A stretch of DNA of 64,000 nt from an uncultured Clostridium sp. (GTDB taxonomy: Bacteria > Bacillota > Clostridia > TANB77 > CAG-508). Position numbers and translations under genes: made by a program. Below the pieces are notes generated by a model that was not told the DNA's origin, made no database searches, and was given only the letters and a program-made list of their open reading frames with translations. The stretch lies in NCBI GenBank assembly GCA_902496295.1, contig CABVAF010000003.1, forward strand, positions 97,859 to 161,858, read 5' to 3'. This document shows positions 10,033 through 64,000 of this stretch, piece after piece (within the stretch, counting starts at the first letter, position 1; every line of letters starts with the position of its first letter).

Positions 10033-10388
10033 TGGTGGAGATGAGGAGAGTCGAACTCCTGTCCAATATTCTTTCCATATAAACATCTACAAGTTTAGTT
10101 TGTTATTAAAATTCCCCTAATATAAAATTAACAAACAAACTTTATATTAAAGTAGCCACTAGATTACCTACTATTTTTGTGGCAAAAAATAGTTTCGTTT
10201 CCCACTAATCGTCGCCTTATCTAAAAACGTGGGCATTTAAAGTAAGACGTCGCCGCTAAAACTAGGCAGCGTATGCTAATTCTCTATTATCAGCGTTTAT
10301 ATTTAAGTTTTGCCTTTTTAAGTGGCCAGGCAACTCCACTACTTGCAATTTATACTTCTAGGATACTGTCGAAACCAAATACATCCCC
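10033..10388 (-). ncRNA. ssrA: tmRNA (transfer-messenger RNA)
   Basis: 5' GGGGATGTATTTGGTTTCGACAG and 3' GGAGTTCGACTCTCCTCATCTCCACCA tRNA-like ends. Internal tag frame GCT GAT AAT AGA GAA TTA GCA TAC GCT GCC TAG (ADNRELAYAA). Confidence 0.9.
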
Positions 10389-10818: not shown

Positions 10819-12069
10819 ATGCACGGAATAACGCTAATAGCACTAGTTGTAACAATTGTAGTTTTATTAATATTGGCAGGAATAACAATAAGCTTAGTAT
10901 TTAGTGAAAATGGAATAATAGCAAAGGCAAGAGAGGCAGCAGAAAAAACGAATCAAGCTACAATAAATGAGCAAGAAGAAATGAATAAAGTAGCAGATTA
11001 TATGAGTAATATGGTGAATGGAATTGGTGGAGGTACTACGCCAGAAGAAAATATAGACCCAGATACTGGTTGGAATTTAAGCAAAGTAAATAAAGTAACA
11101 AGTACAGACGGAGTGGTTGTGCCAGTACCAATAGGGTATACTGCATCAAGTGTAGCAACAGAAAATACAGTAGCAGATGGATTTGTAATATATGAAGGAG
11201 AAGAAGAGGTAAACGATACTAATAAGAGTGCAGCACAGACAACGAGAAATCAATTTGTGTGGGTGCCAGTAGCAAATCCGAGTGAGATGTATGGAACAGA
11301 TAGTAATGGAAAGAAATGGGGAAAATTATATAGTTTCGCTTCAACTGGAATAACACCACTTAATTGGACAGAGCAAGATGGGGTAATGTCTGTAACAGAT
11401 GTAACAAGTAATCGAGAGCCAGATGTAGTAACTGGAAGTGATGGAATAGAATATGATGCAGTAAGTAGCAATTTACAACAAGCAGGGCTTGATGCAAGTG
11501 CAACTGCAGATACATTTCAGACACAGTTAGAGACAGAGTTTAACAATATGATAGATAGTGTAGAGAAGTATGGAGGATTTTATATAGGAAGATATGAAAC
11601 AGGTAATTTGTCTCAGACAGAAGCAGCAGTTATAAAAAATAACACAGATATAAATAATCAAACATGGTATACGATGTATAATAAGGCAAAAGGAGTAGCT
11701 GCGAATAGTAATGTAACTACAACAATGATATGGGGAAGTCAGTGGGATGCAACATTAAGATGGATGTATAATAGTGGAAATGAAGAAAAAAAGACATATA
11801 CTTATAATAGTACAGGAAAGGGAAATTATGGAAATGGAAATGGCTCACTACTGGCAACAGGTTCTAATGAAAGTTATGCAGTAAATAATATATATGATAT
11901 GGCAGGAAATTTATGGGATTGGACAATTGAAGCGGACCACCCCTTTTTCCGAGTTTGTCGTGGAGGTGGCTACGACGACTTTGCCAGCACTGATCCAGCT
12001 TCTTTTCGCAACCGCAACGAACCGACGCGCAGCGACTTCAGTGGCAGTAGGTTAGCTTTATATATGTAG
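10819..12069 (+). CDS. pilin-like N-terminal anchor fused to an FGE-sulfatase/C-type-lectin-fold domain; candidate DGR target protein
   Basis: N-terminus MHGITLIALVVTIVVLLILAGI resembles a prepilin-type segment. C-terminal motifs YDMAGNLWDWT and RVCRGGGY resemble the FGE-sulfatase family. Paralog of 40966-43464. Confidence 0.75.
   Translation: MHGITLIALVVTIVVLLILAGITISLVFSENGIIAKAREAAEKTNQATINEQEEMNKVADYMSNMVNGIGGGTTPEENIDPDTGWNLSKVNKVTSTDGVVVPVPIGYTASSVATENTVADGFVIYEGEEEVNDTNKSAAQTTRNQFVWVPVANPSEMYGTDSNGKKWGKLYSFASTGITPLNWTEQDGVMSVTDVTSNREPDVVTGSDGIEYDAVSSNLQQAGLDASATADTFQTQLETEFNNMIDSVEKYGGFYIGRYETGNLSQTEAAVIKNNTDINNQTWYTMYNKAKGVAANSNVTTTMIWGSQWDATLRWMYNSGNEEKKTYTYNSTGKGNYGNGNGSLLATGSNESYAVNNIYDMAGNLWDWTIEADHPFFRVCRGGGYDDFASTDPASFRNRNEPTRSDFSGSRLALYM
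11932..12051 (+). other. GC-rich, A-poor, NNC-codon-rich block inside the CDS; candidate DGR variable region
   Basis: Composition changes abruptly at GCGGACCAC and returns to AT-rich 18 nt before the stop. 15 of 31 codons from CGT GGA GGT onward end in C. Confidence 0.45.
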
Positions 12070-12120: not shown

Positions 12121-12145
12121 AAGCGCCCTTTGGGGCGTTTTTATT
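12121..12145 (+). terminator. intrinsic terminator (GC stem, 4-nt loop)
   Basis: AAGCGCCC-TTTG-GGGCGTTT followed by TTATT. Confidence 0.65.
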
Positions 12146-22933: not shown

Positions 22934-23018
22934 AGACAGGTCCCAATTTCCAAAAGTCAGAAATTTGGACCTGTCCCTAATTTCTGAAACTCAGAAAAAA
23001 TGACCTGTCCCCAATTTC
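22926..23018. repeat. cluster of GGGACAGGTC-family palindromic units (REP/REPIN-like)
   Basis: One palindromic unit GAAATTAGAGACAGGTCCCAATTTC, plus a 51-nt segment (22968-23018) that differs at one base from the right end of the transposase unit (29341-29391). Confidence 0.85.
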
Positions 23019-26294: not shown

Positions 26295-28253
26295 ATGAGA
26301 ACAAAATATTATAATGATGCTTTTATAGGAAACAAAGATATTTTAGCTACATATAGCAAAAAAGGAGAATTATTAAGGCTATATTATCCAAATCCGGACT
26401 TTAGACAGTTTATAGATTTTTTTGGAACAGGAATAAAGGTTAATGATTCAGGAATGATTTATCTACATGAAGATATAAACAATAAATATAGCCAATATTA
26501 TGATGAAGATACAAATATACTAAATACGGAAATAGAGAATTTATATTATAGACTAAAAATAAAGCAAACAGATTACACATCAATAAAGAAAGATGTTATT
26601 ATAAAACAGTATGTATTTGAAAATAATAATAGTATAAATTTAGACATAAATTTTTTAGTACATTCAAAACTAATTTACGAGGAGAATAATGCAGTTGGTT
26701 CTCAAATAAAAAATAATGCACTAATTCAATATTGCCATGATTATGCACTTGGAATTTTTTCTAAAGAAAACATATATAGTCATCAATTAAATGATGTTGC
26801 AAATAATATACAAAGTGGAGTAATACAAGATAAAGACTATATTGGAATGGCAGCAGACTCAGCTGTTAGTTATGATATTGGAATAATAAAGCCTGGAGAA
26901 AAAAGAGAATTTGTATTATTTATAGTTCCAACTCAAGGAATAGCTGAAGGAGATAATCAATTATTACTAGATAAAATAGATGAAGTAAGGAAAATAGACT
27001 TAAAAGCAGAAAAGCAAAATGTAGCTAAATATTGGAAAAAGTTTGTAAAAGACCATTATAAATTAGGAGAAAAATATCAAATCACAAATAAAAATTATCA
27101 AGGATATTTAGAAAAGTTAAATAAAATATATAAAAGAAGTATACTACTTTTTCCATTGCTTATGGATGAGACAACTGGTGGAATAGTTGCTTCAGCAGAA
27201 GTAGATGAGGAAAAGAGCCAATCTGGAAGATATGCATATTGTTGGCCAAGAGATGCAGTTTTTATTTGTTCAGCACTTGACAAAATAGGGATGACAAAAG
27301 AAGTAGAAAAGTTTTATAAAGTATTTTGTAAAAATACACAAAGCAAAAGTGGAATGTGGGAACAAAGATTTTATACAGATGGAAAGCTTGCGCCTTGTTG
27401 GGGATATCAAATAGATGAAACTGCTAGTGTAATATATGGTGTTTACGAACACTACAAAGTAACTAAAGAAGGAAAATTTATAAAAGATACATTTAAAATG
27501 TGTGACAAAGCAGTAAGATTTCTAGAAAGATATATGGATAATATATTAGGAACAAAAGATGATAGCGATGTTGTAAAAAAAGAAATTGAAGAAACGTATC
27601 ATACAGAAGATAGAGAAAAACTACCAGTAAGCTATGACTTATGGGAAATGAATGAAGGTGTTCATCTATATTCTTTAGCAAGCATAAATGCAGCATATAA
27701 TGCTATGCTTAAAATATATGAAATAATGGAGCCAGAGTATAAAGAAAACAGACTAAAACTTGAGAATATACATAAAAATGTAATTCGCATAAAGAAACAA
27801 TTAGAAGTTATGCAAAAGTATGTAAGTAAAAACTTATATAATGAAAAAACAAAAACATTAAAAAGAAATACAGAAGATGAGAAAACAGACATAAGTATTT
27901 TAGGAAGTGTATATCCTTTTGAAATGTTTGGGCCAAAAGAAAAGAAAGTATTAAATACTATAGAGAAAATAAACTTAACACTACGTACATATACAGGAGG
28001 ATATTTACGTTTTGAACAAGATAGTTATCGTGGAGGAAAAAATCCATGGCCAATATCAACACTATGGATGTCGATGTACTATCAAAAAGCAGGAGAGGCA
28101 AAAAAAGCAAAAGAATGTCTAGAATTTGTTATAAAGAGTTGTAATGAACATGGATTACTTGGAGAACAAGTAGACAACCAAACATTACAGCCAAACTGGG
28201 TAGTAGGCCTAGGCTGGTCTCATGCAATGTTTATTCTATCACTTGGAAATTAG
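26295..28253 (+). CDS. glycoside hydrolase family 15 (glucoamylase-like)
   Basis: YCWPRDAVF, DLWE and PISTLWMSMYY motifs typical of bacterial GH15. The stop codon lies inside the repeat element. Confidence 0.75.
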   Translation: MRTKYYNDAFIGNKDILATYSKKGELLRLYYPNPDFRQFIDFFGTGIKVNDSGMIYLHEDINNKYSQYYDEDTNILNTEIENLYYRLKIKQTDYTSIKKDVIIKQYVFENNNSINLDINFLVHSKLIYEENNAVGSQIKNNALIQYCHDYALGIFSKENIYSHQLNDVANNIQSGVIQDKDYIGMAADSAVSYDIGIIKPGEKREFVLFIVPTQGIAEGDNQLLLDKIDEVRKIDLKAEKQNVAKYWKKFVKDHYKLGEKYQITNKNYQGYLEKLNKIYKRSILLFPLLMDETTGGIVASAEVDEEKSQSGRYAYCWPRDAVFICSALDKIGMTKEVEKFYKVFCKNTQSKSGMWEQRFYTDGKLAPCWGYQIDETASVIYGVYEHYKVTKEGKFIKDTFKMCDKAVRFLERYMDNILGTKDDSDVVKKEIEETYHTEDREKLPVSYDLWEMNEGVHLYSLASINAAYNAMLKIYEIMEPEYKENRLKLENIHKNVIRIKKQLEVMQKYVSKNLYNEKTKTLKRNTEDEKTDISILGSVYPFEMFGPKEKKVLNTIEKINLTLRTYTGGYLRFEQDSYRGGKNPWPISTLWMSMYYQKAGEAKKAKECLEFVIKSCNEHGLLGEQVDNQTLQPNWVVGLGWSHAMFILSLGN

Positions 28254-28296
28254 GGACAGGTCATTTTTTCTGAATTTCAGAAATTAGGGACAGGTC
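28246..28296 (+). repeat. left terminal REP doublet
   Basis: GAAATTAGGGACAGGTCATTTTTTCTGAATTTCAGAAATTAGGGACAGGTC. Confidence 0.9.
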
Positions 28297-29340: not shown

Positions 29341-29391
29341 GACCTGTCCCTAATTTCTGAAATTCAGAAAAAATGACCTGTCCCCAATTTC
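29341..29391 (-). repeat. right terminal REP doublet (inverted)
   Basis: GACCTGTCCCTAATTTCTGAAATTCAGAAAAAATGACCTGTCCCCAATTTC. Confidence 0.9.
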
Positions 29392-33504: not shown

Positions 33505-35668
<2,164 letters not shown>

Positions 35669-40965: not shown

Positions 40966-43464
40966 ATGAGCAATAAAGGTATAACATTAATATCATTAGT
41001 AGTTACTATAATTGTATTGTTAATACTAGCAGGAATAACAATAGGAACAGTATTTAATGATAATGGAATAATAAAAAAAGCACAAGAAGCGGCAAATGCA
41101 ACAGAAGAAGCTGCAAAAAATGACCAGGAAGCAATAAATGGCTTACTAGGAGAAATGGACAGTGTAATAAATGGAATAGGTGGAGGAAATGTACCAACAA
41201 TAGGAAGCATAAATGGAAATATAACATGGAGCACAGGGTCAGCAACTCTAGAGTTAACAACAAATGCAGAAGGAGTAATAATACAATATAGAAAAAATAA
41301 CGATTCTAATTGGACAGATTATACATCACCAGTACCAAGTCTGTTACATGGAGATAAGGTATATGCAAGAGGCGTGAAAGATGGAGAAACTGTAATAAGT
41401 GAAAAAGAATTTAGTATATTAGATACAATACCACCAACAGTAACAATAGCAAGTTCAAGTAGTACAACAAATAGTATAAGTGCAACAGCGACAGCAACAG
41501 ATAACGAAGCAGGAATGGGCTCAAACCCACAATACACATTTTATATAAAGAAAACAGCAGAAGAAGATAGCGCATATGTACAAATAGCAAGTAGCACAAA
41601 TGCAAGTGTAACAAAAGGAGATTTAGAACAAAATACATCATATACAATAAAAGTAGAAGTAACAGATGTGGCAGGAAATAAAGGGCAAGCAACAAAGGAG
41701 ATAACAACAGGCAAAATAGCAGATGCAGGAGATGGACTAACAAATGGAGCAATAATAGCAAGTACACCAGTATGGAGTAATGGAACAGCAAGTACAACAT
41801 TATCAACAACATCAGGATTAACAATACAATATCAAGTAGGCGGAGTAGATGGAAGCTGGACAAATGGAACAAGTGTAACAGGTTTACACCATAGAGATAC
41901 AGTATTTGCAAGATTAACAGATGGCAAAAACTATGGAGGAGAAGCAAGTATAACAATATTAGATACAGTAAATCCACAAAATGCAAGTATAAGTTTGAGT
42001 GCTACAAGTACAAATACAGCAGGAAGTATAACAGCGACAGTAACACTAAATGATAACGAAAGTGGAGTAAATGTAACAGGAAGTAAATGGGTATATAATA
42101 CAAATTCAGGATATATAGGAACAACAGAGAGCAGTTATAACAATACATTTAGCAGCAATGGACAAAAATTAACTTTACAAACAACAGAAGCAGGAACATA
42201 TTATTTACATGTGTTAACAGTAGATAAAGCAGGAAATAAGAAAGAGACAATAAGTAATAGTATCACAGTAACAAAAGCATTAGTAGCAGATGGAAGCTAT
42301 AACGAAGAAAAAGGAGTAAATACACCAAACTTGGGGGATGGAATGACACCAATAAAATGGAATGGAAGCACATGGGTAGAAACAACAGGAAGTGATCCAG
42401 AATGGTATGATTATTCAGCAAAGAAGTGGGCAAATGCAACAACGAGCGATGGAAGTATGTGGGTATGGATACCAAGATATGCATATAGTATAACAAGTGG
42501 ATATCACCAAAGCGGAGCAAATTTAAATAGTACAACACCAGCAGAAGGAGCAGGAACAATAGAAGTAGAGTTCATGAAAGGAACAAGTAATGAGACAGCA
42601 ACAGGAAGAACAACCTTCCAGAATGCAAGTGGACAAGGAAATTGGAATATCCACCCAGCATTTACCTATGGAAGTACAGTAAGTGGAATATGGGTAGCAA
42701 AGTTTGAAGCAAGTAGTGTAGAAGGAAATAGTGATAGCAGAAAAGAAGACGATGTAACAACAAAAACAGTGCAAGTAAAACCAGGAGTAGCGAGCTGGAG
42801 ATATATAACAATAGGAAATATATATACAGTATGCTTAAATTATAATAGTGCGTTAAATAGCCATTTAATGAAGAATGATGAATGGGGAGCTTGTGCCTAT
42901 TTAAGCAAAAGTAAATATGGAAAAGGGACAGAAGAAGTGTGGATAAATAACTTTAGTAACTTTATCACAGGGTCAGCAGGAAATAGTGCAACAGCAAGTA
43001 TGAATACAGGAACGACAACTACTTATACAAGTGCACAAGGAGTAAAGGCGAGTACAACAGGAAATGTGTATGGAATATATGATATGAGCGGAGGAGCAGG
43101 GGAATATGTAGCAGCATATGTAAATAATGGAAATAGTAGTTTAAATAATGGTTCAAATTTAGTAAATGGAGAAGCGAAAACGAAGAATGTATATAGTGTA
43201 GGAAGTTCAGATAGTACAGCGAATAACTATAGTGCAAATGCGGGGGTGTATGGAGATGCAGTATGGGAGACATCAAATGGATACAGCAATAGTAGTGATT
43301 CATGGTACGCCGATCGCTCTGACATTCCTCACACGAGCAATCCTTTCTTCATACGCGGGGGCAATTTCAGCGATACTACGAATGCTGGCGTGTTCTATTT
43401 TAACTGCGACTATGGTAGCTGGAACAGCGTTGTTTCGTTCCGTCCGGTCTTGGTCACACTTTAG
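40966..43464 (+). CDS. large pilin-like-anchored surface protein: two tandem Ig-like modules plus an FGE-sulfatase/C-type-lectin-like domain; candidate DGR target
   Basis: MSNKGITLISLVVTIIVLLILAGI N-terminus. About 70 aa are paralogous to 10819-12069. Two module repeats of about 165 aa (...IQY...ILDT.P...DNE.G...AGNK). C-terminal YGIYDMSGGAGEY and PFFIRGGNF. Confidence 0.8.
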   Translation: MSNKGITLISLVVTIIVLLILAGITIGTVFNDNGIIKKAQEAANATEEAAKNDQEAINGLLGEMDSVINGIGGGNVPTIGSINGNITWSTGSATLELTTNAEGVIIQYRKNNDSNWTDYTSPVPSLLHGDKVYARGVKDGETVISEKEFSILDTIPPTVTIASSSSTTNSISATATATDNEAGMGSNPQYTFYIKKTAEEDSAYVQIASSTNASVTKGDLEQNTSYTIKVEVTDVAGNKGQATKEITTGKIADAGDGLTNGAIIASTPVWSNGTASTTLSTTSGLTIQYQVGGVDGSWTNGTSVTGLHHRDTVFARLTDGKNYGGEASITILDTVNPQNASISLSATSTNTAGSITATVTLNDNESGVNVTGSKWVYNTNSGYIGTTESSYNNTFSSNGQKLTLQTTEAGTYYLHVLTVDKAGNKKETISNSITVTKALVADGSYNEEKGVNTPNLGDGMTPIKWNGSTWVETTGSDPEWYDYSAKKWANATTSDGSMWVWIPRYAYSITSGYHQSGANLNSTTPAEGAGTIEVEFMKGTSNETATGRTTFQNASGQGNWNIHPAFTYGSTVSGIWVAKFEASSVEGNSDSRKEDDVTTKTVQVKPGVASWRYITIGNIYTVCLNYNSALNSHLMKNDEWGACAYLSKSKYGKGTEEVWINNFSNFITGSAGNSATASMNTGTTTTYTSAQGVKASTTGNVYGIYDMSGGAGEYVAAYVNNGNSSLNNGSNLVNGEAKTKNVYSVGSSDSTANNYSANAGVYGDAVWETSNGYSNSSDSWYADRSDIPHTSNPFFIRGGNFSDTTNAGVFYFNCDYGSWNSVVSFRPVLVTL

Positions 43465-43494
43465 GGTGACCACCCAATATACCCCGAAACGAAC
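43306..43494 (+). other. GC-rich, NNC-codon-rich block spanning the last ~53 codons and 30 nt past the stop; candidate DGR variable region
   Basis: Sharp composition switch at TACGCCGATCGC. 23 of 53 sense codons end in C. A 7-bp hairpin TGGTCAC/GTGACCA holds the TAG stop in its loop. Confidence 0.45.
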
Positions 43495-43528
43495 AAAAAG
43501 ATGGCATGTAAATATTTTAAGTAAAATT

Positions 43529-48796: not shown

Positions 48797-49624
48797 ATGG
48801 GAATGAAACATTTTAGAGCTTATACTCCATCAAGAAGACATATGACAGTTTCTACATTTGATGAGATAACAAAGAAAACTCCTGAAAAATCTTTACTTGC
48901 TAAAAAGAAAGAAAAAGCAGGAAGAAACTCATATGGTAGAATTACAGTAAGACATCAAGGTGGAGGAAACAGACAAAAATACAGAATAGTAGATTTTAAA
49001 AGAAATAAAGTTGATATGCCAGCAACAGTAATTGGTATAGAATATGATCCAAACAGAAGTGCAAACATAGCATTAATCCAATATGAAGATGGAGAAAAAG
49101 CTTATATATTAGCACCTGTAGGATTAAAAGATGGAGACAAAGTTGTATCTGGAGATAAAGCAGATATAAAACCAGGAAATTGTATGAGAATAGAAAACAT
49201 ACCAGTAGGTACTATGATTCACAACATAGAGTTTAATCCTGGCCAAGGAGGAAAGGCTGTTAGAGCAGCAGGACAAGAAGCACAACTTATGGCTAAAGAA
49301 GGAAAATATGCTCATGTTAGATTACCTTCTGGAGAAATGAGACTAGTTATGGCTGTATGTAAAGCTACAATAGGAACAGTTGGAAATGCAGACCATGAAA
49401 ATGTAAATATTGGTAAAGCCGGAAGAAAGAGACATATGGGTATCAGACCTACAGTAAGAGGATCTGTAATGAACCCAGTAGATCACCCTCATGGTGGTGG
49501 TGAAGGTAAGTCTCCAGTTGGACATAGTGGACCATTAACACCTTGGGGCAAACCAGCATTAGGATACAAGACAAGAAAGAAAAATAAAAATACAGATAAA
49601 TTTATAGTTAAGAGGAGGAAGTAG
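48797..49624 (+). CDS. rplB: 50S ribosomal protein L2
   Basis: Start moved to the ATG at 48797 (SD AAAGGAG). [12 protein letters not shown] and [12 protein letters not shown] motifs. Confidence 0.96.
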
Positions 49625-63179: not shown

Positions 63180-64000
63180 TTGGAGATTAAAGGAGAAGTA
63201 ACAGAAATAATATATAAAAATGAGGTAAATGGTTATTGTATAGCTGCGTTTGAGACAGAAGAAGAAGTTACTACAATAGTTGGGTATTTACCTTTTGTAA
63301 ATAAAAATGATACATTAGAGGTAACTGGCAAATTTGTTGAACATCAAGAATACGGTAGACAATTTAAAGTAGAAACATTTAAAAAAGTAATGCCAGAAAC
63401 GCTAGATTCATTAGAAAGATATTTGGCTAATGGAATGATAAAAGGAATAGGTCCAGCAACTGCAAAAAAAATAGTAGATACATTTGGAAAAGAAACTATA
63501 AATGTTTTTAAATTAGAGCCAGAAAGGTTATCTCAAATAAAAGGAATAACAAAAGAAAAAGCGTTTGAGATAGCACAAGAATTTATAGAAAATTGGGAAC
63601 TATGGCAATTAGTATCTTATTTAGAAAAGTTTGGACTTGGACCACAAAGTGCACAGGGAATATACAAAAAATTAGGAGAAAATGCAATAGAAAAAATAGA
63701 AGCAGATCCATACCTTTTGGTAGAATTATCAAATAAGGTGGATTTTGTGCAGATAGACAAAATGGCACTTAAAATAGGTATGGAATATGACAATGAAAAA
63801 AGAATAAGAAGTGGAATAAAATATGCACTTTTAAGAGCAACATATAATGGTCATTGTGCAGTTTTATATGATAACCTAGTAGCGTTTACAAGGGAGTTAC
63901 TTGGCGTCAGCGAAGATGCAGTAGATACTTCTTTAATTAACTTAAAAGCAAAAGAAGAAATATACATAGAGGAAAGAGAAAAAGAAGCCTGGATATACTT
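63180..64000 (+). CDS. recD2: RecD2/YrrC-like SF1B helicase, N-terminal part (runs off the window)
   Basis: Not in the track because no stop is reached. TTG start 9 nt after AGAGG. Hand translation LEIKGEVTEIIYKNEVNGYCIAAFE...GIGPATAKKIVDTFG...matches the N-terminal OB/HhH region of RecD2. Confidence 0.7.
   Translation, partial: MEIKGEVTEIIYKNEVNGYCIAAFETEEEVTTIVGYLPFVNKNDTLEVTGKFVEHQEYGRQFKVETFKKVMPETLDSLERYLANGMIKGIGPATAKKIVDTFGKETINVFKLEPERLSQIKGITKEKAFEIAQEFIENWELWQLVSYLEKFGLGPQSAQGIYKKLGENAIEKIEADPYLLVELSNKVDFVQIDKMALKIGMEYDNEKRIRSGIKYALLRATYNGHCAVLYDNLVAFTRELLGVSEDAVDTSLINLKAKEEIYIEEREKEAWIY

Follow-up and report, generated by a model that had tools for sequence, protein, structure and literature searches.

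A very probable remote target of a diversity-generating retroelement in a gut Clostridia genome: a pilin-like gene with an adenine-depleted 3' end

The window, that is, the whole stretch of DNA analysed here, comprises 64 kb of Clostridia sequence with 29% GC. It is identical to sequence of scaffold_48 (197 kb), of which 102 kb were covered, in the human gut metagenome ENA ERZ28657587 from sample SAMEA2467039. At 10819–12069, it contains a gene for a protein that is composed of an N-terminal pilin-like hydrophobic helix, a beta-rich middle and a C-terminal domain of the formylglycine-generating enzyme (FGE)/C-type-lectin fold. We discuss the evidence that the 3' end of this gene (11930–12060) is, very probably, the variable region (VR) of a target gene of a diversity-generating retroelement (DGR), encoding a cell-surface protein and rewritten from a non-coding template repeat (TR). 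The gene and its features are the following.

10819–12069, plus strand: putative DGR target gene, an open reading frame (ORF) of 416 aa
10819–10905, plus strand: N-terminal segment MHGITLIALVVTIVVLLILAGITISLVFS, putative prepilin-like signal or membrane anchor, also present in the gene at 40966
11056–12066, plus strand: single modelled folded unit, residues 80–416, with the FGE-type C-type-lectin fold in its C-terminal part (AlphaFold2, AF2, model)
11930–12060, plus strand: VR, aligning with the template repeat TR4
11935 to 12042, plus strand: putatively adenine-mutagenised codons within the VR (TR4 alignment)
12043–12057, plus strand: GGCAGTAGGTTAGCT, 3' terminus of the repeat, which does not vary between TR4, the window VR, the ortholog L103 and L001b

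The 3' end of the gene is set apart by its composition. The block at 11932–12051 has 58% GC (A 19.2%, C 30.8%, G 27.5%, T 22.5%), while the remainder of the gene contains 41.3% A and 11.1% C, and the final 18 nt, stop codon included, are AT-rich again. At least 50% GC over 100 nt is reached at just three sites of the window, namely, the flagged block, 43239–43506, and a conserved part of rplB at 49458–49557. From CGT GGA GGT on, 15 of 31 codons are of the NNC type, compared to 11 of 370 upstream in the same gene (Fisher p = 2e-12), and the block-encoded peptide is RGGGYDDFASTDPASFRNRNEPTRSDFSGSR. An earlier note on this DNA, made from the sequence alone, had described a 120-nt GC-rich block of about one-fifth A, its 15 NNC codons out of 31, its peptide and the return to AT-rich sequence 18 nt before the gene end, all of which proved accurate; the same holds for its statement that the block is dissimilar, at the nucleotide level, to 43306–43494 (no similarity by blastn).

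A pattern derived from the block core (11959–12018), in which variable-looking bases were also allowed to be A, was scanned against 185,579 genomes, one per species (596 Gb). Exactly one match was obtained, in a metagenome-assembled genome (MAG) titled ‘uncultured Clostridia bacterium’. The repeat found there, TR4, reads GCG AAC AAC ACC AAC AAC AGA GTT AAT CGT GGA GGC AAC TAC AAC AAC AAT GCC AGC AAC AAT CCA GCT TCT AAT CGC AAC AAC AAC AAT CCG ACG AAC AGC AAC AGC AAC AAT GGC AGT AGG TTA GCT. It is non-coding and lies ~60 nt downstream of the stop codon of an ORF with a reverse transcriptase (RT) thumb region; RT fragments homologous to this ORF carry IGNYTSQ and RYMDD, which are DGR hallmarks. 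The alignment of TR4 with the window VR comprises 134 columns, with 97 matches, 29 mismatches at TR adenines, five at other bases and one 3-nt gap; thus, 29 of 56 A sites differ as opposed to 5 of 78 non-A sites (p = 2.5e-9). The same TR4 sequence was recovered, unchanged, from 7 independent gut samples, in spite of differences among the VRs, and a variant, TR7, occurs in 8 more. The search for a template repeat and an RT proposed in the earlier note has, hence, yielded a cognate template beside an RT gene in a related Clostridia MAG. Within the window, blastn with word size 7 and both blocks as queries revealed no template repeat, and the exact TR4/TR7 core had 0 matches in the metagenome collection.

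The distribution of variability among homologs conforms to this template. In 121 aligned homologs, entropy amounts to ~3 bits at codons that are AAC or AAT in TR4, with a mean of 0.66 bits elsewhere, and variable codons are limited to AAC/AAT (or TAC, ACG, AGC) of TR4. Where TR4 has TAC, the homologs encode Y, C, F or S, and where it has ACG, they encode T, A or S, as expected if only A is mutated. Within clusters of 90% identity, 2–4 wholesale VR alleles are found in some lineages; in cluster 1, 32 of 46 VR columns are variable compared to 26 of 316 elsewhere. Most informative is the positional ortholog L103, where the gene is found in the same order with a 50-aa ORF, mutL, miaA, sepF and divIVA. 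Its identity to the window is 99.0–99.2% in the flanks, 90% in the gene body and 71% in the VR, and 30 of the 33 VR differences fall on TR4-A sites (51 sites), with 3 on non-A sites (72 sites). The comparison of orthologs and strains that the earlier note had called for shows, both in the 121 homologs and in L103, hypervariability confined to template-A codons. Outside the VR (window 10819–11928), the alignment with L103 also contains 15 gap columns, and the whole target gene is a divergence hot spot, possibly via paralog recombination or diversifying selection.

These data bear on two explanations that do without a retroelement. Firstly, the FGE-type C-terminal motif might simply need G/C-rich codons, the NNC excess being codon bias, and the conserved R, G, P, A and S residues do have GC-rich codons. 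However, the domain is AT-rich outside the block; A/T-rich synonymous codons exist for Arg, Gly and Pro, of which at least AGA for Arg and GGA for Gly are used in the AT-rich part of the gene; and the NNC codons are mostly at variable rather than conserved positions. The entropy map and L103 refute this explanation, which we regard as scarcely credible. Secondly, horizontal mosaicism or gene conversion could have introduced a GC-rich cassette from a higher-GC donor, or swapped it between paralogs. Such a history would fit the faster divergence of the gene body relative to the flanks, the differing genomic contexts of the paralogs, and a member of cluster 10 which shares the 3' half of the VR and differs in the 5' half in a recombination-like manner. 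Against it stand the placement of allele differences at template-adenine positions instead of at random and the existence of an AAC-rich non-coding template beside an RT gene. Furthermore, identical GC blocks in distant species, to which the earlier note had pointed as a sign of mosaicism, are absent from the 185,579 genomes scanned, where the identical block was found in no other genome. Mosaicism is thereby largely refuted, and we deem it very improbable.

For the DGR explanation, the following course of events is proposed. A non-coding TR, resembling the VR but with AAC/AAT at the varied positions, would be transcribed elsewhere in the genome; the DGR RT, together with the accessory protein Avd, would copy the TR RNA to cDNA, misincorporating opposite template adenines; and the cDNA would then replace the VR, turning AAC/AAT codons into NNC/NNT. 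Invariant scaffold residues would reside in A-poor codons (CGT, GGC, CCG, GCT, TCT) and, hence, be faithfully copied. The low A content, the high GC content and the NNC excess in an AT-rich gene would be due to the mutated AAY codons in combination with the A-poor scaffold codons. The last ~45 residues of the FGE-type C-type-lectin domain would constitute the varied ligand-binding surface, and the 15 nt of GGCAGTAGGTTAGCT could mark the 3' boundary from which the cDNA begins to home, akin to an initiation-of-mutagenic-homing site.

The encoded protein belongs to a large family, with more than 7,900 homologs at E <= 0.001 (word-indexed search) and 3,742 matching clusters at 50% identity; one member is named ‘SUMF1/EgtB/PvdO family nonheme iron enzyme [Clostridia bacterium]’ at NCBI. 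An AF2 model from a diverse alignment has a predicted local distance difference test (pLDDT) score of 96.5 and a predicted template modelling score of 0.94; it superseded a first model from a shallow alignment, which was unusable (pLDDT 41.7). In Foldseek, the model matches OvoA, FGE, EgtB and PvdO and also all three solved DGR variable proteins, i.e., TvpA (2y3c), TaqVP (5vf4) and Mtd (1yu*), the matches being confined to FGE-type C-type-lectin proteins. For FGE, EgtB, PvdO and the three DGR proteins, the probability is 0.87–1.0 and the template modelling score 0.3–0.4. Pfam overall finds nothing in the window protein, and PF03781 (FGE-sulfatase) is not matched by it even at E 0.1; 15 of 41 close homologs match this family at E < 0.01 (best 1.4e-5). 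Profile comparison with the PDB retrieves pFGE (1y4j) at E 7e-4 for the last ~55 residues only, and a close-homolog profile gave no match to PDB sequences. According to the model, the protein shares the FGE/SUMF1-EgtB-PvdO fold, while membership among the enzymes is not supported at the Pfam threshold. The FGE-type end pattern recognised in the earlier note stands, therefore, as regards the fold (AF2, Foldseek) but not as a Pfam FGE-sulfatase score for this protein. DGR variable proteins of the FGE fold are known as binding proteins, not as enzymes.

At the N-terminus, the segment MHGITLIALVVTIVVLLILAGITISLVFS is 71% (nt) and 62% (aa) identical to the start of gene 40966. The designation of the two genes as paralogs in the earlier note fits the N-terminal 75 residues, with 62% identity to the gene 40966 protein, but not the C-terminal domains, which are not BLAST-similar. 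Inspected for a class III signal peptide, the sequence is G-ITLIALVVTIVVLLILAG, with Ala where Glu5 is conserved. Evidence for a pilin is weak for the window protein itself (GspG at E 0.04; PDB pilin chains at E 0.1–0.3 by profile), and an N_methyl match, likewise weak, is present in 2 of 41 homologs.

An intact DGR is located on the same scaffold, ~71 kb from the flagged block and ~19–21 kb beyond window position 64000 (locus L102, 10001–14923). It consists of a 481-aa pilin-like target with a VR, which is a third paralog, three tandem template units and a convergent MutS-like/Avd/RT operon. Its templates, and the VR in the window to which one of them relates, are as follows.

L102 11607–11750: template repeat TRa
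L102 12108–12251: template repeat TRb (unit spacing 501 nt)
L102 12579–12722: template repeat TRc (unit spacing 471 nt)
Window 43306–43461, plus strand: second, unrelated VR at the C-terminus of gene 40966–43464; best template TRa

Each template unit is continued by a conserved element of ~330 nt without an Rfam match. The RT of this DGR (370 aa; IGNYTSQ and YMDD) is 45% identical to the RT type associated with the Rfam RNA RT-14, which is described below. TRa and the adjacent VR differ at 21 adenines and at almost nothing else; judged by these differences, this DGR is active now or was so recently. As to the second block in the window, 120 homologs show ~3 bits of entropy at interleaved codons versus 0.53 elsewhere. 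Its alignment to TRa has 132 identical columns out of 178; of the mismatches, flanks included, 27 fall on A and 19 on non-A sites, and inside the repeat, ~8–9 non-A differences remain. At the end of gene 40966–43464, a 7-bp stem GGTCAC...GTGACC overlaps the stop codon. Targets of TRb and TRc were not found.

The earlier note had anticipated that the two blocks would need two different templates, and this is borne out by TRa as the best template for the second block and the lack of a match of the flagged block to TRa, TRb or TRc. Its further question, one DGR cassette or two, is answered for the second block, which maps to TRa on the same scaffold, but the cassette for the flagged block is absent from the 102 kb of the scaffold. 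Since none of the same-scaffold templates matches the flagged block, the flagged gene would be the remote target of a second cassette. Its cognate TR is then to be expected more than ~70 kb away or on another contig, the target being served in trans; remote targets at distances of >100 kb are documented for non-phage DGRs (PMC5758913).

What such a cassette may look like can be seen in relatives of the TR4 locus. Intact RTs of 339–345 aa are present in sister cassettes (RVT_1, 3.4e-23), and the elements typically follow one another in the order target, MutS-like protein, Avd, RT, TR, RT-14 RNA and a small SSB-like gene, with the VR 2.1–2.4 kb upstream of the TR. The sister cassette L039, for instance, encodes MutS_I, bAvd (PF22296, NF033474) and RVT_1; Avd is also found in L008, in L099 and, on the scaffold of the window, in L102. 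For the TR4 cassette itself, any Avd or MutS-like (MSL) gene would lie outside the contigs, which all end within an intron. The Rfam RT-14 RNA (RF02921; 106–109 bits) starts at the last bases of the template, at these positions:

L004 1224–1368, minus strand: RT-14 RNA
L014 1257–1401: RT-14 RNA
L015 1226–1370: RT-14 RNA

Given this coincidence, RT-14 is probably the 3' part of the DGR RNA, by analogy with the cDNA-priming spacer of phage BPP-1; that RT motifs besides RT-10 function in DGRs has been speculated before (PMC5737381). A 35-mer of RT-14 marks 64 human-gut loci and is conserved across at least 44 template variants, of which none surpasses TR4 in its fit to the flagged block and none corresponds to the second block. 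RT genes are intact (339–345 aa) in ~17 of the 64 loci and broken in the others. Seven loci (L071, L078, L081, L085, L087, L089, L094) have the template and the RT-14 RNA with an unrelated 224-aa protein, not an RT, encoded by the upstream ORF, and in three (L072, L040, L035), a VR-like mutated sequence stands directly before the RT-14 5' end, as if the template had been overwritten. A phage origin was considered and rejected, as IMG/VR contigs contained no match to the general VR pattern, the RT-14 35-mer or the pattern of the second block, and GenBank phages none either.

In those TR4/TR7 loci where sequence upstream of the RT 3' part is available, a group II intron interrupts the RT gene, with L007 as the only exception.

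L017 289–929; also L014–L016, L021, L024–L026 and L004 1915–1983: group II intron in the RT gene

The intron scores 46.2 bits for Rfam Intron_gpII (threshold 40), and the C-terminus of an intron protein (maturase and HNH) is present. The intron 3' end is inside the second Asp codon of YMDD, so that splicing would restore ...YMD followed by DSILLLKTKEEA; the intron-bearing contigs all break inside the intron, exon 1 being outside the data. The reading of the L004-type RT fragment as a pseudogene was rejected because the intron 3' end makes up the 5' part of the ORF as called. In L017, the intron protein is itself split by a 1-nt insertion (context TAT C GGA AAG). The interruption in the TR7-type L007 (1–170) differs in kind both from the intron and from the extra C described next: RT homology starts abruptly at IGNYTSQ, and the 168 nt upstream to the contig start are unrelated and AT-rich.

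Three further RT lineages in this clade carry an extra C just before the Gly codon of GNYxSQ (ATT C GGA AAC, ATA C GGA AAC, ATA C GGT AAT), the zero-frame codon always being CGG.

L008 9905–9915; L037; L099 5975–5985; also L045, L063, L074, L091, L098, L100 and L101: RT loci with the extra C

In the L008 lineage, both RT halves are open (188 + 151 codons), with 33 versus 9 and 20 versus 14 synonymous versus non-synonymous codon differences, and in another extra-C lineage, the TR/VR pair is cleanly A-specific. Open halves under purifying selection, together with the A-specific pair, suggest from the sequences that the extra C is a programmed +1 recoding site; for the L008 lineage, the reading of the RT fragments of 116–143 aa as pseudogenes was rejected on account of the open halves and the purifying selection. 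A DGR RT with a frameshift has so far been suggested for Quimbyvirus phage (PMC8008677). On this basis, the flagged gene could be the remote target of an RT-14-type DGR whose RT gene is not directly translatable, being split by an intron or shifted by +1 at AUH-CGG, which we put forward as a speculative and rather unlikely variant. If true, hypermutating the target would require intron splicing or translational recoding, with one retroelement controlling another.

Several observations weigh against the assignment of the flagged block to a DGR, or against such a DGR being at work today. Neither the window nor the 102 kb of the scaffold contains a TR, RT, Avd or RT-14 RNA cognate to the flagged VR: a tblastn search over 84 kb for RT, Avd, MutS-like, intron-encoded and SSB-like proteins had no match below E 0.04, Rfam returned no more than a tmRNA and a tRNA for the window, no cassette was found in the 10 kb past each window end, the templates TRa, TRb and TRc do not match, and the 18 contigs obtained by looking up three RT-fragment proteins include none from ERZ28657587. 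The closest TR4 loci have the intron-interrupted RT gene. No hairpin directly follows the VR. In several lineages other than those described above, the VR is frozen (0–1 of 46 VR columns vary versus 18–30 of ~320 elsewhere), and a second sample has an identical VR, with 2 single-nucleotide polymorphisms elsewhere in 5.9 kb. Finally, five non-A differences and a one-codon deletion separate the window VR from TR4. Three of these non-A differences, together with a CGA codon, are common to the window and L103; the lineage's own template therefore probably differs from TR4 at these shared sites, i.e., is a TR4 variant. Such a close variant would have AAT at codons 6 and 21, CGA and GGT; measured against it, about one non-A change and the one-codon deletion are left in the window VR. 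These two, the change being T-to-A in GAA, are specific to the window and are not explained by a template variant.

From such observations, a fossil VR can be construed, written once by a DGR whose cognate template and RT have since been lost or inactivated, with only ordinary mutation acting now. The missing TR in the 102 kb, the deletion and one or more non-A changes, whichever known template is taken for comparison, the identical VR in the second sample, the frozen lineages and the many related cassettes with broken, truncated or missing RT genes are all consistent with it. On the other side, 30 template-A sites have been rewritten since the split from a strain with 99% identical flanks, the genome keeps at least one intact DGR, and the search was confined to about half of one scaffold of the genome. 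We regard a fossil as a possibility to be reckoned with, though not the favoured one. Owing to the 30 template-A sites rewritten since the split from L103, the rewriting of the VR by a DGR is, as far as can be read from sequences, evolutionarily recent, and homing may still take place in the source genome.

Downstream of the gene, further elements are found.

12121–12140, plus strand: GC hairpin with 8 pairs, loop TTTG, followed by the T run TTTTTATT (terminator scan), 52 nt past the stop codon
12071–12085, 22970–23018, 28246–28294, 29343–29391 and 35543–35668 (window): sites of the dispersed motif CCTGTCCC(C/T)(T)AATTT

Bordetella phage BPP-1 reportedly needs a hairpin a few bp after its VR, a finding said to go back to Guo et al. 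in 2011. The GC stem to which the earlier note had drawn attention is indeed present (core CGCCC-TTTG-GGGCG at 12124–12137, extending to 12121–12140) but has the appearance of a common terminator, not of a DGR element. Its candidacy as a DGR target hairpin was rejected because of its distance from the VR and the T run behind it; by its sequence, it is most likely the intrinsic terminator of the target gene. In L001, the hairpins of two related genes are placed at different distances. The motif CCTGTCCC(C/T)(T)AATTT is intergenic, with 10 copies versus 0.17 expected in the window, often as inverted pairs; one copy begins 2 nt beyond the target gene's stop codon, and CCCTGT is also found right after the stop codon in the related L001 genes.

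Upstream, a tmRNA gene (window 10033–10388, minus strand, 174 bits) lies 430 nt from the target gene in divergent orientation. tmRNA genes are common integration sites, and target homologs in other genomes sit in quite different contexts; for these two reasons, the target gene may be part of a small island.

The closest known system is the Treponema denticola DGR with its target TvpA (PDB 2Y3C), and the flagged gene is to be grouped with it among chromosomal DGRs with remote FGE-fold targets. Both are chromosomal and non-phage, with a surface-anchored target and a C-terminal VR of the FGE-type C-type-lectin fold, and TvpA is among the fold and profile matches of the window protein. The T. denticola element acts in trans on several related targets at dispersed genomic sites (PMC5758913). 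TvpA differs in being a lipoprotein, in contrast to the pilin-like N-terminal helix found here, at a sequence identity of ~13%; moreover, the host in the present case is a gut Clostridia MAG, and the cassette of its relatives is ordered MutS-like, Avd, RT, TR and then RT-14 RNA.

With the element of phage BPP-1 (Mtd, Avd, TR, Brt), the present system shares the inferred adenine-specific mutagenesis, the replacement of a C-terminal C-type-lectin VR, and Avd. A structured RNA adjoins the TR in both, namely, RT-10 in BPP-1 (PMC5737381) and RT-14 in the relatives' cassettes. Contrary to the situation here, where the TR follows the RT, the target is remote and no hairpin stands directly after the VR, the BPP-1 element belongs to a phage and forms a single cassette with the TR upstream of the RT. 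MSL DGRs such as that of Legionella pneumophila (Wu et al. 2018) resemble the sister cassettes in combining a small MutS domain I protein with Avd, a combination described in PMC5758913; the L. pneumophila DGR is from another phylum and has another target architecture. The Bacteroides DGRs (bioRxiv 10.1101/2024.11.15.621889) also belong to human-gut commensals and vary pilus-associated or pilin-like surface adhesins, which are, however, type V pilus components of Bacteroidota, while the present protein, from a Clostridia host, has an N-terminus similar to those of type IV prepilins or pseudopilins.

The present analysis supplies a mechanism for an unannotated and very large protein family. Its members, at least one of which NCBI labels as a SUMF1/EgtB/PvdO enzyme, should rather be regarded as pilin-like surface proteins of human-gut Clostridia that serve in binding and are diversified by DGRs. 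The compositional signal, i.e., an A-poor, NNC-rich C-terminal stretch in an AT-rich gene, can reveal remote DGR targets which cassette-based finders miss, because the RT and the template are tens of kb away or on another contig. The intron-split RT, the recurrently frameshifted RTs under purifying selection, the three-template array and the RT-14 RNA abutting the template bear on the control of DGR activity and, likewise, on why automated pipelines under-call DGRs in gut Firmicutes.

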